Origin: Escherichia phage G4
Strand: one strand, 5' to 3'
Sequence record: OR492646
DNA: 5,534 nucleotides
Part shown: one piece after another, positions 1 through 5,534 of the stretch
Position numbering within the stretch: position 1 is the first letter of the stretch
Layout of the letters: the number at the start of each line of letters is the position of its first letter
Notes under the pieces: model-generated
The model's database searches: none
Seen by the model: the letters and a program-made list of their open reading frames with translations, nothing else
Told to the model about the DNA's origin: nothing
Translations under genes and position numbers: made by a program

Positions 1-3
1 TGC

Positions 4-33
4 TTGACTAATACTCAAACACTACTCTAATAT
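4..33 (+). promoter_or_regulatory. Candidate sigma70 promoter for gene A (pA-like): -35 TTGACT at 4-9, 18-nt spacer, -10 TAATAT at 28-33
   Basis: Seen in sequence: TTGACT is 5/6 to the -35 consensus, and TAATAT keeps the key -12T, -11A and -7T positions. The predicted transcript start near 40 sits upstream of the GGAGG at 48-52 and the ATG at 59. In phiX174-type phages a promoter for A lies in the H-A intergenic region. Not verifiable without transcript mapping. Confidence 0.4.
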
Positions 34-58
34 GCCTCCCATCAAACGGAGGCTTTTC

Positions 59-1723
59 ATGTTTAAAACTCATTCTGATTACTTCAACAAACCAAACATC
101 GACGCAATCAAACCGCTCGTCGAAACTGCTGGTATGTCTATTCTTGCTCAATCTCCGGGTCTCCGTATCTGGAAACAGTGCAATACTCGCATCAAACTAC
201 TGGAAGAAATCCTCGCCCACTACACTAACGGCATCCGCCGTGATGATAATGGTGACTTCTGGATGAATCCAAACTCTCAACTCGCAACCACTATTGCCTA
301 TCGTGCTCACCACAAAGGCCACAACCCTAAATTCAAACAATACCCAGAGTCATTTACCCTGGACGATATTATTACTGGCAAGCCAATACCTCAAACTGCC
401 CTTGGTGAATTACAACTCTCCGATGAAATCGGTGAAGATTACCGTCTCACAGTCCTCTCCATAATCGAAGAATTGCAAGAATGCTACGACGTGCTCGGAC
501 AACTTGATATTAATAACACTATAGACCACAAACCCCTCGGTAATGACCACTGGAACCTCCTCTATGAAAAACCCGTATACAAACATTGGTATCAACTCGT
601 TTCAAAACGACCCCTTAAAGATATCCGCGCCGATTACAACTATGCAAAAGCGAAGGGTATTAAAGATGAATGCTCAAAAATCTTGGAGGAGTCAACTATG
701 AAGTCTCGACGTGGCTTTACCGTTCAAAGATTAATGAATGCTATGCGTACTGCCCACACTCAGGGCTGGTATGTTGTATTCGATACTCTTACTCTAGCCG
801 ATGACCGCTTAAAGGATTTCTATGATAACCCCAATGCTCTTCGTGACTACTTCCGTGATATTGGTCGTATGGTGCTTACTGCCGAAGGTCGCTCGGTGCA
901 TGACTCATCTGCCGACTGCTATCAGTATTTTTGTGTGCCAGAGTATGGTACACAGCACGGTCGTCTACATTTCCACGCAGTGCATCTTATGCGCACACTT
1001 CCTTTGGGTTCTCTGGACCCTAACTTCGGTAAGCTGGTACGCACTAATCGGCAAATAAATAGCTTGCAAAACACGTGGCCTTATGGTTACTCTATGCCCA
1101 TCGCAGTCCGGTACTCCCAAGACGCATTCTCCCGCGCTGGCTGGCTCTGGCCTGTTGACACAAAGGGTGAACCCCTTAAAGCTACCTCGTATATGGCCGT
1201 AGGCTTCTACGTTGCTAAATACGTTAACAAAAAATCAGATATTGACATGGCCGCAAAAGGCCTAGGGAATAAACAATGGAACAATTCGCTCAAAACCAAG
1301 ATCAACTTCATACCCAAGAAAGTGTTCAGAATCCGAATGTCCCGCAATTTCGGAATGAAACTACTATCAATGGCTCACCTGTCAGCGGAAACCCTGATGG
1401 AACTAACCCAAGTGGGTTACGACGTGACCCCGTTCAACAACATCTTGAAGCAGAACGCCAAGAAAGAGCTCAAATCGAGGCTGGCAAAGAAATCTGTCGC
1501 CGACGTTTTGGAGGCGCAACCTGTGACGACCAATCTGCTAAAATTCATGCGCAATTTGACCCGAACAATCGGAGAGTCCAACCTACAGAGTTTTATCGCT
1601 TCAATGACTACGAAATTAACAAGTACGGATATTTCTGATGAAACCAAAAACTACGTTGCTGCTGAAGGAATTGCTGTTGCTAACCTACGAATTAAATCGA
1701 AGTGGACTGCTGGTGGAAAATGA
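59..1723 (+). CDS. A: Replication initiation protein A (HUH rolling-circle endonuclease), 554 aa
   Basis: The ORF track gives 32..1723. The in-frame ATG at 59 is preceded by a strong Shine-Dalgarno GGAGG (48-52) at 6-nt spacing, whereas the ATG at 32 has no RBS and overlaps the putative -10. The translation contains the HUH motif (GRLHFHAVH) and a long C-terminal region nearly identical to phiX174 A as I recall it (e.g. [43 protein letters not shown]). It stops with TGA at 1721-1723, overlapping the C start ATG (ATGA). Confidence 0.93.
500..529 (+). other. Origin of viral (+) strand rolling-circle replication; 30-nt A-protein recognition and nick site CAACTTG|ATATTAATAACACTATAGACCAC
   Basis: This is an exact match to the conserved 30-nt phiX174-type origin as I recall it, embedded in gene A (it encodes [10 protein letters not shown]). 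Protein A nicks between G506 and A507. Confidence 0.85.
698..1723 (+). CDS. A*: A* protein: in-frame internal restart within gene A (C-terminal 341 aa of A)
   Basis: The internal ATG at 698 is in the A frame and preceded by a strong SD GGAGGA (685-690) at 7-nt spacing. It begins MKSRRGF, the same position as the phiX174 A* start. Whether this phage expresses A* cannot be determined from sequence. Confidence 0.5.
1276..1638 (+). CDS. B: Internal scaffolding protein B, 120 aa, encoded in an alternate frame entirely within gene A
   Basis: The ORF track entry 1276..1638 starts with ATG. Its acidic, Q/E-rich protein ends ...[17 protein letters not shown]...[16 protein letters not shown], closely matching phiX174 B (...[10 protein letters not shown]...EFYRF...GYF) at the same length. 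Confidence 0.9.
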
Positions 1724-1808
1724 GGAAATTCAATCTCAACTTAAAAAACTCGAGGTCGTCTTACTTCGCAACCTTTCGCCATTATCTCAACGTTCTGGCA
1801 AAGACTGA
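1638..1808 (+). CDS. K: Protein K, 56 aa (small leucine-rich protein), overlapping the 3' end of A and the 5' end of C
   Basis: Not in the ORF track (below its length cutoff). Manual translation from the ATG at 1638-1640, which overlaps the B stop as TGATG, gives [56 protein letters not shown], then TGA at 1806-1808. This matches phiX174 K (...[21 protein letters not shown]...LSPS...) in sequence, length and position. Confidence 0.85.
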
Positions 1809-1974
1809 CGCCCTTGACGAGGAAAAATACCTAAACATGCTAGGTGCTCTCCTCAAAGACTGGTTCCGGTACGAAGAACATTTCGTACATGGTAAACAAT
1901 CAATGCTTGACATACTGAAAGAACGTGGCCTATTATCCACAACGTCAACTGACACAAACCGCAAAGGAAACTGA
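1720..1974 (+). CDS. C: Protein C (DNA maturation; switches replication to single-strand synthesis and packaging), 84 aa
   Basis: The ATG at 1720-1722 overlaps the A stop. The ORF track extends it to a GTG at 1702, which I judge an artefact. The translation [21 protein letters not shown]...[13 protein letters not shown]...[13 protein letters not shown]...[10 protein letters not shown] closely matches phiX174 C. Confidence 0.9.
1907..1936 (+). promoter_or_regulatory. Candidate sigma70 promoter for the late genes (pD-like): -35 TTGACA at 1907-1912, 18-nt spacer, -10 TATTAT at 1931-1936
   Basis: Seen in sequence: a perfect -35 hexamer and a 5/6 -10 hexamer. It lies near the 3' end of gene C, about 40 nt upstream of the D start, where the phiX174 D promoter is located. 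Confidence 0.5.
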
Positions 1975-1975
1975 A

Positions 1976-2434
1976 ATGTCTAAATCAAACGAATCTGCTG
2001 TAGCCTTTCAAACTGCTATTGCCTCTATCAAACTCATTCAAGCCTCTTCTGTTCTCGACTTGACAGAGGACGACTTTGACTTCTTAACTCGCGACCGTGT
2101 CTGGATTGCTACCGACCGCTCACGCGCTCGCCGTGCTATCGAGGCCTGCGTATATGGAACACTGGACTTTGTCGGGTATCCTCGCTTTCCTGCTCCTGTT
2201 GAGTTTATTGCTGCCGTCATTGCTTATTATGTTCATCCCGTTAACATCCAAACCGCCTGCCTCATCATGGAAGGTGCTGAGTTTACCGAAAACATCGTCA
2301 ATGGTGTTGAACGCCCAGTTAAAGCCTCTGAACTGTTCGCCTTCACTCTTCTCGTTCGCGCCGGCAACAAAGACCTTATCGGTCATGCCGAAACAAACAT
2401 CCGTGAACAATTACGTGCTCAAGGAGTTATGTAA
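1976..2434 (+). CDS. D: External scaffolding protein D, 152 aa
   Basis: ATG at 1976 with an AGGA SD about 9 nt upstream. The ORF track's upstream extension to 1925 lies inside C. From IASIKLIQAS onward the protein is nearly identical to phiX174 D (FPAPVEFIAAVIAYYVHPVNIQTACLIMEGAEFTEN...) at the same length. The TAA stop at 2432-2434 overlaps the J start (TAATG). Confidence 0.95.
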   Translation: MSKSNESAVAFQTAIASIKLIQASSVLDLTEDDFDFLTRDRVWIATDRSRARRAIEACVYGTLDFVGYPRFPAPVEFIAAVIAYYVHPVNIQTACLIMEGAEFTENIVNGVERPVKASELFAFTLLVRAGNKDLIGHAETNIREQLRAQGVM

Positions 2435-2465
2435 TGAAAAAATCAATTCGCCGCTCTGGTGGTAA
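2154..2465 (+). CDS. E: Lysis protein E (MraY inhibitor type), 103 aa, overprinted in the +1 frame of D and running into J
   Basis: ATG at 2154 with a GAGG about 10 nt upstream. The ORF track's GTG at 2097 is probably too early. The N-terminal transmembrane segment WTL...LAFLLLLSLLLPSLLIMFIP matches the conserved phiX174 E TM domain, including the Pro in LLLPSLL. The stop is TAA at 2463-2465. Confidence 0.85.
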   Translation: MEHWTLSGILAFLLLLSLLLPSLLIMFIPLTSKPPASSWKVLSLPKTSSMVLNAQLKPLNCSPSLFSFAPATKTLSVMPKQTSVNNYVLKELCNEKINSPLWW

Positions 2466-2511
2466 ATCTAAAGGTGCTCGCCTCTGGTATGTAGGCGGAA
2501 CACAATACTAA
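2434..2511 (+). CDS. J: Small basic DNA-binding/packaging protein J, 25 aa (MKKSIRRSGGKSKGARLWYVGGTQY)
   Basis: ATG at 2434-2436 overlaps the D stop, with an AAGGAG SD at 2420-2425. The highly basic peptide ends ARLWYVGG, matching the conserved J C-terminus. Its 25-aa length is G4-like (phiX174 J is 38 aa). Stop is TAA at 2509-2511. Confidence 0.9.
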   Translation: MKKSIRRSGGKSKGARLWYVGGTQY

Positions 2512-2519
2512 ACTCTTAT

Positions 2520-2537
2520 GTGGGACCGCGGTCCCAC
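2520..2537 (+). terminator. J-F intergenic perfect palindrome GTGGGACCGCGGTCCCAC (hairpin; weak intrinsic terminator or mRNA-stabilising element)
   Basis: Seen in sequence: an 18-nt perfect inverted repeat followed by the T-rich run TCTATTT. Microviruses carry a hairpin between J and F that acts as a leaky terminator and transcript stabiliser. Confidence 0.55.
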
Positions 2538-2556
2538 TCTATTTAAGGATACAAAA

Positions 2557-3840
2557 ATGTCTAACGTTCAAACTTCTGCGGACCGTGTACCTCATGACTT
2601 ATCTCACCTTGTCTTTGAGGCTGGTAAAATCGGTCGCCTCAAAACTATCTCTTGGACGCCTGTTGTTGCTGGTGACTCTTTCGAGTGTGATATGGTTGGC
2701 GCTATTCGCCTTTCCCCTCTTCGTCGCGGCCTCGCTGTTGACTCACGTGTTGATATCTTTTCTTTCTACATTCCACACCGTCATATCTACGGTCAGCAAT
2801 GGATTAATTTTATGAAGGATGGCGTTAATGCCTCTCCTCTTCTTCCTGTTACATGTTCCTCTGGTTGGGGCTCTGCTGCTTATCTTGGTACCATTCCGTC
2901 CTCTAACCTTAAGGTGCCTAAATTCTTACATCAGGGCTATCTGAATATTTATAACAACTACTTCAAACCGCCTTGGTCTGATGACTTAACTTACGCCAAC
3001 CCATCCAATATGCCTGCTGAGGATTATAAATGGGGCGTACGTGTCGCTAACCTGAAATCTATCTGGACCGCGCCACTTCCACCGGATACCCGTACATCTG
3101 AAAACATGACTACTGGTACATCCACTATTGACATTATGGGCCTCCAAGCCGCATATGCTAAATTACATACGGAACAGGAACGTGATTACTTCATGACCCG
3201 TTACCGTGACATTATGAAAGAGTTCGGCGGTTATACATCCTATGATGGTGATAATCGTCCTCTTCTGCTCATGCGCTCTGAGTTTTGGGCCTCTGGCTAT
3301 GACGTAGACGGTACCGACCAATCTTCTCTCGGTCAATTCTCTGGACGCGTCCAGCAAACCTTTAATCATAAAGTGCCACGCTTTTATGTTCCTGAACATG
3401 GCGTAATTATGACTCTGGCGGTTACTCGCTTCCCGCCGACTCATGAAATGGAAATGCACTATTTTGTAGGCAAAGAAAACTTAACCTATACCGATATTGC
3501 TTGTGACCCTGCACTGATGGCTAACCTGCCACCGCGTGAAGTGTCCTTAAAAGAATTCTTCCACTCCTCACCTGATTCTGCTAAATTCAAAATCGCTGAG
3601 GGCCAATGGTATCGCACACAGCCTGACCGTGTCGCTTTCCCATATAATGCTCTGGATGGATTCCCGTTCTACTCTGCTCTCCCGTCCACGGAACTAAAAG
3701 ACCGTGTACTGGTTAACACTGATAACTACGATGAAATCTTCCAGTCTATGCAGCTTGCACACTGGAATATGCAAACTAAATTTAATATTAACGTTTATCG
3801 TCACATGCCTACGACTCGTGACTCAATCATGACCTCGTAA
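2557..3840 (+). CDS. F: Major capsid protein F, 427 aa
   Basis: ATG at 2557 with an AAGGA SD 9 nt upstream. The ORF track's start at 2518 lies inside the palindrome. The translation MSNVQTSADRVPHDLSHL...RLSPLRRGLA...QGYLNIYNNYF...IDIMGLQAAYA...GQFSGRVQQT...KFKIAEGQWYR...PTTRDSIMTS is strongly similar over its full length to phiX174 F at the same 427-aa length. Confidence 0.97.
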   Translation: MSNVQTSADRVPHDLSHLVFEAGKIGRLKTISWTPVVAGDSFECDMVGAIRLSPLRRGLAVDSRVDIFSFYIPHRHIYGQQWINFMKDGVNASPLLPVTCSSGWGSAAYLGTIPSSNLKVPKFLHQGYLNIYNNYFKPPWSDDLTYANPSNMPAEDYKWGVRVANLKSIWTAPLPPDTRTSENMTTGTSTIDIMGLQAAYAKLHTEQERDYFMTRYRDIMKEFGGYTSYDGDNRPLLLMRSEFWASGYDVDGTDQSSLGQFSGRVQQTFNHKVPRFYVPEHGVIMTLAVTRFPPTHEMEMHYFVGKENLTYTDIACDPALMANLPPREVSLKEFFHSSPDSAKFKIAEGQWYRTQPDRVAFPYNALDGFPFYSALPSTELKDRVLVNTDNYDEIFQSMQLAHWNMQTKFNINVYRHMPTTRDSIMTS

Positions 3841-3849
3841 CGCAACAAA

Positions 3850-3955
3850 GGCCGCCCCTCTACTGGTCAGATACCTGCCCAATGTGGGGCGGACCGTGCC
3901 TACGGAGATACTTGAGTCTCCGATACATGGACGGCGAAAGCCGCCGTCCCTACTG
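3850..3955 (+). other. F-G intergenic structured region: candidate G4-type complementary (-) strand origin with three stem-loops and a CTG primase start site
   Basis: Seen in sequence: hairpin 3852-3858/3886-3892 (CCGCCCC/GGGGCGG); hairpin 3903-3908/3917-3922 (CGGAGA/TCTCCG, 8-nt loop); hairpin 3929-3936/3942-3949 (GGACGGCG/CGCCGTCC, 5-nt loop); then CTG at 3953-3955. The reverse complement of 3929-3954 reads AGTAGGGACGGCGGCTTTCGCCGTCC, which matches my recollection of the 5' end of the G4 primer RNA made by DnaG primase. Confidence 0.6.
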
Positions 3956-3976
3956 CAAAGCCAAAAGGACTAACAT

Positions 3977-4510
3977 ATGTTCCAGAAATTCATTTCTAAG
4001 CACAATGCTCCAATTAACTCTACTCAGCTTGCTGCCACTAAAACTCCGGCTGTCACGGCACCTGTTTTATCTGTGCCTGACTTAAGCCGCTCTACTATTA
4101 AAATCAATGCAACAACCACAGCCGTTACAACTCATTCAGGCTTGTGCCATGTTGTTCGCATTGATGAAACAAGCCCAACAAATCATCACGCTCTATCTAT
4201 TGCAGGTTCGTTATCAAACGTTCCTGCTGATATGATTGCTTTTGCCATTCGTTTTGAGGTCGCTGATGGCGTCGTTCCTACTGCCGTCCCGGCCTTATAC
4301 GACGTCTATCCAATCGAAACCTTCAATAACGGCAAAGCAATCTCATTTAAAGATGCTGTTACTATCGATTCACATCCCCGCACCGTCGGTAACGACGTTT
4401 ATGCGGGAATCATGCTCTGGTCTAACGCTTGGATCGCCTCTACTATCTCTGGCGTCCTCTCTGTTAATCAGGTAAACCGTGAAGCAACTGTTCTTCAACC
4501 TCTGAAATAA
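3977..4510 (+). CDS. G: Major spike protein G, 177 aa
   Basis: ATG at 3977 with an AAGGA SD 7 nt upstream. The translation starts [10 protein letters not shown] and ends [14 protein letters not shown], with an internal YDVYP...[26 protein letters not shown], matching phiX174 G (MFQTFISRHN...YDVYP...[26 protein letters not shown]...LQPLK). Confidence 0.95.
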
Positions 4511-4520
4511 GGATTATCCT

Positions 4521-5534
4521 ATGTTTGACGCTATTGCTGGCGGTATCGCCTCCGCACTTGCTGGAGGCCTTACAGGTAAATTATTTGGCGGCGGTCAGTC
4601 CGCCAACTCTACTGGAATTCAAGGCAACGTCCTTGCTTCCGATAACAATGTTGTAGGTGCTAATGATGCCGGTATTAAATCTGCTATTCAGGGCTCTACT
4701 GTTCCTAACTCTCAGGAAGCTGCCCCCTCCGCTATCTCTGGCATCCTTGCCGACTCTGGCAAGCATGCGCTCTCGTCTCTTACCGATGCTGGTGCAAATA
4801 AACTCATGGAGGCTGTCGGCCTTTCTAAGTCTGCCTCTGACAAGGGCAAGGACACAAAAGACTACCTCGCCGCCGCATTCCCCGATCTCAACCCATGGGA
4901 ACGTGCCGGCGCTGGCGCTTCTGGTGCAGGCATGCAAGACGCTGGCTTCCAAAATCAGAAAGAGCTAACCAAAATGCAGCTTGACAACCAAAAGGAAATC
5001 GTTAAGATGCAAAACGAAACCCAGAAGGAAATCGCTGGGCTTCAATCTGTTACATCACGCGAAAATACCAAGGATACTGTATATGCTCAAAATGAAATGC
5101 TCGCGTATAACCAAAAAGAGTCTATGTCACGCGTTGGCGCTATTCTCGAAAACACAAGCCTCACCAAACAACAACAAACTTCTGAAATTATGCGGCAAAT
5201 GCTTACTCAAGCTCAAACCGCAGGTCAATATTTTACGAATGAGCAAATCCAAGCGCTTACAAGAAAAGTTGGTGCTGATATTGATGCTGTTCGCGCTAAC
5301 ACTGCACGCACCCATGTAGAAATCGACCGCTCAAAACAGGAGGTTCAAAACTCCCGTTACGCTTCATCACAGGTAGGCAAAACCGCTAAGGACGTGTCCA
5401 ATGCAATTACTGATACAGCTGGTTCTATTGTTGATTATTTTCGTGGTGTTGATCAAAAAGTGGCAGACGTTTACAACAACTATTTCAAAGATGGTAAATC
5501 GAAAGGAATAGAATCCAATCACCGCTCCAAATAA
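4521..5534 (+). CDS. H: DNA pilot / minor spike protein H, 337 aa
   Basis: ATG at 4521 with an AAGGA SD 7 nt upstream. It has a Gly-rich N-terminus ([16 protein letters not shown]...KLFGGGQ) and a conserved central region (KDYLAAAFP...[27 protein letters not shown]...[14 protein letters not shown]...[20 protein letters not shown]) closely matching phiX174 H. The TAA stop is the last codon of the window. Confidence 0.95.

Follow-up and report, generated by a model that had tools for sequence, protein, structure and literature searches.

A Gequatrovirus G4 genome with a spacer-less D-J junction and nearest relatives that change along its length

The 5,534-nt DNA of Escherichia phage G4 deposited as record OR492646 was analysed over its whole length (hereafter the window). 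It is almost certainly the complete, conventionally linearised genome of a lytic single-stranded DNA (ssDNA) coliphage of the species Gequatrovirus G4 (Microviridae, Bullavirinae). Eleven intact genes were found on the plus strand in the canonical order A, A*, B, K, C, D, E, J, F, G, H, each with an ATG start and a single terminal stop, and their coordinates agree with the GenBank annotation of the phages ID11, G4 and WA6. An earlier note, made from the sequence alone, had described the same eleven genes on one strand in this order and had put the non-coding portion below 5%; the count gave 250 nt (4.52%) in five runs (1-58, 1975, 2512-2556, 3841-3976 and 4511-4520). Conversely, 839 nucleotides are read in two frames and six (1638, 1720-1723 and 2434) in three. 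The window contains 76 mechanically predicted open reading frames (ORFs) of at least 20 amino acids (aa), the long plus-strand ones being the phiX174-family gene set. The ten distinct products all exceed the curated Pfam cut-offs of their microvirus families, and every gene except E encodes a protein about 91-100% identical to its counterparts in ID11, G4 and WA6. At 5534 nt, with eleven genes in order on one strand and extensive overlaps, the window has the layout of the Bullavirinae, whose genomes measure about 5.3-6.1 kb.

Gene A (59-1723) encodes the 554-aa rolling-circle replication initiator, which is identical to that of ID11 at 539 of 554 positions and scores 204 bits against Phage_GPA (cut-off 31.4). 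A* (698-1723, 341 aa, 334/341 identical to ID11) is an in-frame internal restart of A with GGAGG upstream, and its coordinates are as annotated in ID11, G4 and WA6. Within A, in another frame, lies gene B (1276-1638) for the 120-aa internal scaffolding protein (Phage_B, 166.9 bits; 111/120 identical to ID11). The start of gene K (1638-1808, 56 aa; Protein_K, 53.5 bits) overlaps the B stop as TGATG, and the gene spans the A/C junction, at which the start of gene C (1720-1974, 84 aa; Phage_C, 129.9 bits; 81/84 identical to ID11) overlaps the A stop as ATGA. The C protein acts in the switch to ssDNA synthesis and packaging. Gene D (1976-2434) encodes the 152-aa external scaffolding protein (gpD, 276.7 bits), identical over all 152 residues to those of ID11 and WA6. 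Nested in D and reaching 31 nt into J is gene E (2154-2465), which encodes a 103-aa long-form lysis protein (Microvir_lysis, 74 bits). Gene J (2434-2511) encodes the basic DNA-packaging protein of 25 aa, all of them shared with G4, ID11 and WA6 (Microvir_J, 60.8 bits). The structural genes F (2557-3840), G (3977-4510) and H (4521-5534) encode the 427-aa major capsid protein (Phage_F, 555 bits; 416/427 identical to G4), the 177-aa major spike protein (Phage_G, 120.4 bits; 174/177 identical to ID11) and the 337-aa minor spike or DNA pilot protein (Microvir_H, 451 bits; 323/337 identical to ID11), respectively. The F product also matches the solved G4 capsid structure (Protein Data Bank entry 1GFF, E = 4e-297).

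The relationship of the window to known phages was determined by megablast against 50,697 phage records, 373 of which cover at least 80% of it. The top match was coliphage ID11 (AY751298) with 96.2% identity at 100% coverage, over positions 1-5577 of the record, and further full-coverage matches were NC13 and WA5 (both 96.1%) and G4 itself (V00657 / NC_001420, 95.6%), all of them classed as Gequatrovirus G4. Of phiX174-type genomes only 18-34% of the window could be aligned, at 76-79% identity, and of alpha3-type genomes about 31%, at 75-76%. The view taken in the earlier note, that the window is essentially a whole G4-like microvirus genome, is thus borne out by full-length colinear matches, and the comparison with Microviridae references that it had proposed gave 100% coverage for the G4 species and partial coverage for the phiX174 and alpha3 types. 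Its placement in the G4 lineage rather than with phiX174 or alpha3 had been based on the 25-aa J, the 554-aa A and a primer-like sequence in the F-G spacer, and the megablast result agrees with these. Both protein lengths are those of the G4-like genus; in phiX174, J has 38 aa and A has 513 aa.

Aligned end to end with ID11, the window (5534 versus 5577 nt) showed 212 substitutions and a single 43-nt indel. For conservation and private-substitution counts an alignment of nine G4-like genomes was used, made up of seven G4-species genomes together with ID52 and Shigella phage vB_1081. Identities in this alignment were 96.2% to ID11, 95.8% to NC2 and WA3, 95.6% to G4, 95.3% to NC10 and 95.1% to WA6; those to ID52, which is a separate species, and to vB_1081 were 92.3-92.4%. 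In ICTV-style practice, species are demarcated at about 95% or more whole-genome nucleotide identity. The window reaches this level, the values for WA6 and NC10 lying near the threshold, and no result was obtained that contradicts the identification as G4 species. Private to the window are 58 substitutions, scattered over the genome. For six products (A, B, E, F, G and H), an exact-sequence look-up gave NCBI proteins without a single difference, namely WMU34121, WMU34123, WMU34127, WMU34129, WMU34130 and WMU34131, which are encoded on a 5534-nt contig and listed as gpA to gpH under "Escherichia phage G4". Their numbers are those to be expected if the eleven genes received accessions in one unbroken series. 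The genome had therefore already been deposited and holds nothing new, in line with the opinion of the earlier note that no undescribed system is present. G4 is a well-studied species, and the genome is an ordinary, correctly identified member of it with an existing GenBank deposit.

Both replication origins of the G4 type were located. The viral (plus) strand origin is a 30-nt element in gene A, CAACTTGATATTAATAACACTATAGACCAC (500-529, plus strand, exact match), which is found at position 500 in all nine G4-like genomes compared and which we take, from established knowledge of phiX174 and G4, to be the site nicked by protein A. The A protein contains HFHAVH (aa 304-309), of the HUH type, and the double-tyrosine sequence YVAKYVNK (aa 384-391), presumably corresponding to the phiX174-type initiator's metal-binding and twin-tyrosine motifs. 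The combination known from the Bullavirinae, the 30-mer in A and both motifs in its product, is hence present in the window. The F-G spacer (3841-3976, plus strand) represents the G4-type complementary-strand origin (oric) and is identical to that of G4 at 135 of 136 positions, with three hairpins (3850-3895, 3903-3922 and 3929-3949) and the start signal CTG at 3953-3955, so that it has both the sequence and the fold of the oric of the G4-like genus. Folded as ssDNA it reached -29.1 kcal/mol (z = -4.81), and none of 200 shuffled sequences was as stable. Its only difference from G4 lies in the loop of the middle hairpin. In the G4 record V00657 an "RNA primer of replication" is annotated at 3970-3997 and an "origin of compl. 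strand synthesis" at 3998; after subtraction of the 43-nt offset these correspond to 3927-3954 and 3955 of the window. The primer template at 3927-3954 is identical to G4 in 28 of 28 positions, its complement reading AGTAGGGACGGCGGCTTTCGCCGTCCAT. Since the annotated G4 primer maps identically onto this segment, the primer-like sequence that the earlier note had pointed out in the F-G spacer is the G4 primase origin. Direct recognition of the oric of the window by DnaG primase is expected by analogy with G4, in which it is established to occur without the PriA primosome. In the middle hairpin the loop (3909-3916) varies among the relatives, reading ATACTTGA in the window, ATACTCGA in G4 and ACACCCGA in ID11, WA6 and NC2. 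The stem of this hairpin is unchanged in the seven G4-species genomes and differs at two positions in ID52 and vB_1081; the nine genomes show no variation in the stem of the first hairpin, in the third hairpin or in the primer template.

Putative transcription signals were found in the remaining spacers and upstream of D. In the H-A intergenic spacer (1-58, plus strand), the sigma-70-like match TTGACT-18-TAATAT at 4-33 is a candidate for promoter P_A; between it and the A start lie a GC-rich hairpin (34-53) and, just after the hairpin, TTTT. As RNA, 1-58 folds with z = -3.77, and 0 of 200 shuffles folded as well. Neither the hairpin nor the promoter-like hexamers vary among the nine genomes, variation being confined to 19, 21 and 23 in the inter-hexamer spacer, and from what is known of phiX174 and G4 this region may serve as promoter and hairpin signal. 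A candidate P_D promoter, TTGACA-18-TATTAT (1907-1936, plus strand), is the best sigma-70 match of the window, with 11 of 12 consensus positions, and lies 40 nt upstream of D. In a consensus scan the total of promoter-like sites in the window was not above the shuffled expectation, and the promoter assignments therefore rest on position and prior knowledge only. The terminator scan identified a hairpin in the J-F spacer (2520-2537, plus strand), GTGGGACCGCGGTCCCAC followed by TCTATTT, with -13.1 kcal/mol and z = -2.29. It is of the G4/ID11 type and resembles an intrinsic terminator, namely the one that the family has after J. Rfam and tRNA scans of the window revealed neither Rfam families nor tRNAs.

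Two longer gene versions suggested by the mechanical ORFs were rejected. A 563-aa A would start at an in-frame ATG at 32, and every annotated relative starts at 59; a 440-aa F would start at an in-frame ATG at 2518, a start that the annotated relatives do not have. Both were discarded because the upstream ATGs overlap the 5' edge of conserved hairpin stems, lack a Shine-Dalgarno sequence such as the starts at 59 and 2557 have and are unused in annotated relatives. The ATG at 32, which overlaps the stem at 34-53, is kept in nine of nine genomes, and the ATG at 2518, which overlaps the stem at 2520-2537, occurs only with the G4-type hairpin. Long open frames were also seen on the minus strand, at 4581-4952 (123 aa), 3163-3459 (98 aa) and 2120-2410 (96 aa). 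Expression from the minus strand is not known in these phages, and such frames probably result from the skewed composition together with the constraint that overlapping genes impose.

The sole structural difference from G4 is at the D-J junction, where the window lacks the 43-nt spacer present in G4, ID11 and NC2. In these three phages the end of D, AAGGTGTTATGTAA, recurs imperfectly 43 nt downstream as AAGGAGTTATGTAATG, which provides J with its ribosome-binding site and start, and the spacer is bracketed by a 14-nt near-direct repeat, AAGGTGTTATGTAA / AAGGAGTTATGTAA, of which the window retains exactly one copy. The D stop overlaps the J start as TAATG, which leaves the D C-terminus (…QGVM) unaltered and places nucleotide 2434 in three genes. 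The E genes of ID11, G4 and NC2 stop at a TGA within the spacer. Without this stop, E of the window continues 31 nt into J and has the tail …KELCNEKINSPLWW, giving 103 instead of 96 aa (seven additional residues). Both the D/J overlap and the longer E therefore follow from the missing spacer. E keeps its N-terminal membrane helix with Pro21 and is identical to that of WA6 at 100 of 103 positions but to those of ID11 and G4, which have a different C-terminal tail, at only 86 and 80 of 103, respectively. Hence the window does not have the 5577-nt layout of G4 with its D-J spacer and its 96-aa E ending there, and the G4 assignment of the earlier note holds for the species but not for collinearity with G4 proper, the junction being spacer-less and of the WA6 type. 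The annotations of WA6 and NC10, both of 5529 nt, and of ID52, of 5538 nt, give the same spacer-less D/J with a 103-aa E. The sequence of vB_1081 has an identical junction, although its record annotates neither E nor J, and WA3 (5540 nt) shows a third state with an intermediate 5-nt gap. Full-text searches of the literature for the D-J spacer gave nothing, and the statements made here on that literature draw on GenBank annotations and established background.

Judged from its sequence, the genome is a mosaic of G4-species lineages. The nearest relative shifts along it, and four segments stand out against a genome-wide background divergence of about 4-5%. WA3 is closest at 601-1200 (6/600 mismatches versus 225/4925 elsewhere, Fisher p = 3.8e-6) and at 1801-2091 (2/291 versus 229/5234, p = 7e-4), and WA6 is closest at 2092-2511, the D-E-J segment (5/420 versus 268/5109, p = 3e-5), and at 3549-3848 (2/300 versus 271/5229, p = 5e-5); outside these blocks it is ID11, G4 or NC2. 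From 2512 on, the window has the J-F hairpin GTGGGACCGCGGTCCCAC, the allele of G4, ID11 and WA3, and not the shorter WA6 allele GGGGCTACGGCCCC. Indels totalling 5 nt and several substitutions separate the two alleles, and both form stable stems with a T-rich tail. The joining of a G4-type J-F hairpin to a WA6-type D-E-J segment places a breakpoint near 2500-2517. The most divergent part of the window is 1-500, about 9% away from every relative; of the 212 differences from ID11, 46 fall here, as do 17 of the 58 private substitutions. Where A is free of overlap (59-697), 42 codons differ synonymously and 8 non-synonymously from ID11, and this mostly synonymous change fits a weaker constraint where a single frame is read. 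Positions 1-300 are closest to NC2, and the donor of 1-500, if there was one, lies outside the sampled lineages.

On these data we consider it rather likely that the phage is a natural recombinant within the G4 species, combining a WA6-type D/J and long E, a G4/ID11-type J-F terminator and WA3-like blocks in A and C-D, a combination absent from the isolates in the phage collection searched. Two points limit the reading of the genome as a whole. The segments tested by Fisher's test had been picked after inspection, which makes the p-values optimistic (that of 3.8e-6 would survive correction for about 150 segment-by-relative comparisons), and strandedness, circularity, host and the steps of the life cycle are deduced rather than observed. 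The shifts of the closest relative, to WA3 at 601-1200 and 1801-2091, to WA6 at 2092-2511 and 3549-3848 and to ID11 or G4 elsewhere, could also have arisen if two or more co-occurring G4-like strains had been assembled into one chimeric sequence. We regard such a chimera as improbable, as all eleven genes and every overlap are intact, a similar patchwork exists among other isolates in the pairwise matrix, the deposit is that of a named phage, its 11 protein accessions running consecutively, and the 58 private substitutions are spread across the genome. For the D-J junction, inheritance together with a WA6-like segment ending at the breakpoint near 2500-2517 appears most likely from the sequence, because the window follows WA6 at nearly every base to the end of J and then carries the G4/ID11/WA3 J-F allele. 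A fresh microhomology-mediated deletion, natural or made in the laboratory, by slippage between AAGGTGTTATGTAA and AAGGAGTTATGTAA in a G4/ID11-type genome would explain why a near-direct repeat spaced exactly 43 nt apart in ID11, G4 and NC2 is represented by exactly one copy, and the G4/ID11-type hairpin downstream of J would suit it. However, the kept copy and its flanks are WA6-like: 2330-2511 differs at 2 sites from WA6 and at about 5-10 from ID11, G4 and NC2, the latter sites including those at about 2365, 2374, 2386 and 2389 just upstream of the junction, and at least four independent isolates share the spacer-less state. A fresh deletion in a G4 background was consequently ranked below inheritance and is judged very unlikely. 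An assembly error as the source of the 43-nt gap is likewise disfavoured by the WA6-like flanks and by the same junction in four other genomes.

It was further considered whether the sequence might be a fragment of a larger replicon, that is, a microvirus that is integrated or carried by a plasmid, or a contig that is incomplete. No positive support for this was found, and its ends speak for a whole genome. As the earlier note had reported, the window opens in the H-A intergenic region, a spacer of 58 nt, and closes exactly with the last base of the H stop (TAA, 5532-5534); positions 1 and 5534 align with 1 and 5577 of circular reference records, with no bases missing and no terminal redundancy. 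The full colinearity with circular references, with ends neither missing nor duplicated, suggests that the genome is circular, as would be expected of the Bullavirinae, which package circular ssDNA into a T=1 capsid and grow lytically on Enterobacteriaceae. No match to the window was detected in 5,426 complete Escherichia coli genomes, and plasmid records yielded only phiX174-like 5386-nt matches (Escherichia, Vibrio, Cellulomonas and Edwardsiella). Six such "plasmids" are, at 5386 nt, as long as the phiX174 genome and agree with phiX174 records in both the coordinates and the identity of their match to the window; these public plasmid records are probably contaminated by a sequencing spike-in. 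IMG/VR, GTDB and JGI were scanned with a degenerate pattern of 35-36 nt for the primase origin of the G4 type. It was found in no contig of 185,579 GTDB species genomes or of the JGI metagenomes and in only two IMG/VR contigs (5538 and 5577 nt). G4-like phages appear to be very rare outside culture-based isolations. Moreover, the window contains neither an integrase nor a tRNA. Taken together, an origin from a larger replicon is hardly conceivable, and neither of the outcomes named as contrary in the earlier note, a lack of Bullavirinae similarity or an embedding in a non-phage replicon, was encountered.

The gene set, origins, motifs and relationships were computed here, and the steps of the life cycle proposed below follow established G4 and phiX174 biology. 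The packaged strand would be the plus strand shown. After entry, the host DnaG primase would bind the three-hairpin F-G origin directly and lay an RNA primer of about 28 nt, starting opposite the T of CTG (3953-3955), to prime the complementary strand. Protein A, an HUH/tyrosine nuclease, would nick the 30-nt origin at 500-529 and drive rolling-circle replication. B and D are expected to scaffold F, G and H into procapsids, into which C and J would load the ssDNA, and E would cause lysis through a block of MraY. In a recombinant genome the spacer-less state would have been acquired with the WA6-like D-E-J segment. The lack of the spacer makes E seven residues longer and would let J translation begin on the D stop codon.

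If the recombinant origin is correct, the phage offers a natural comparison for asking whether the 43-nt spacer affects E function or J translation, the latter being either independent of D termination or coupled to it. Recombination and indel turnover have already been documented for this phage group, and the D-J spacer polymorphism, the two J-F hairpins and the WA3/WA6/ID11 patchwork illustrate both at the few non-coding sites of a very compact genome. In practical terms, the sequence can be labelled as a complete Gequatrovirus G4 genome and need not be mined for unknown cellular systems.

Among known phages, ID11 and G4 have the same 11 genes, with coordinates equal to those of the window up to 2434, and share with it the 30-mer of the plus-strand origin, the oric hairpins and primer template and the allele of the J-F terminator hairpin. 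The D and J proteins of ID11 are identical to those of the window, and G4 has an identical J and a D identical at 151 of 152 positions. Unlike the window with its E tail …KELCNEKINSPLWW, both have the 43-nt D-J spacer, a length of 5577 nt and a 96-aa E ending in …KVLCKDL. Conversely, WA6 (DQ079904) and NC10 (DQ079906), also Gequatrovirus G4 and 5529 nt long, have the same TAATG D/J junction, the 103-aa E and a near-identical D-E-J region, but differ from the window in the 5-nt-shorter J-F hairpin of the GGGGCTACGGCCCC type, in a lower overall identity of 95.1-95.3% and in much more divergent G and H genes. The more distant phiX174 (Sinsheimervirus) and alpha3-like phages (Alphatrevirus) show the same gene order, the 30-nt viral-strand origin and the same protein families. 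The D/J overlap of phiX174 is also TAATG, whereas its F-G spacer contains a PriA-dependent primosome site in place of the primase-only origin of G4.

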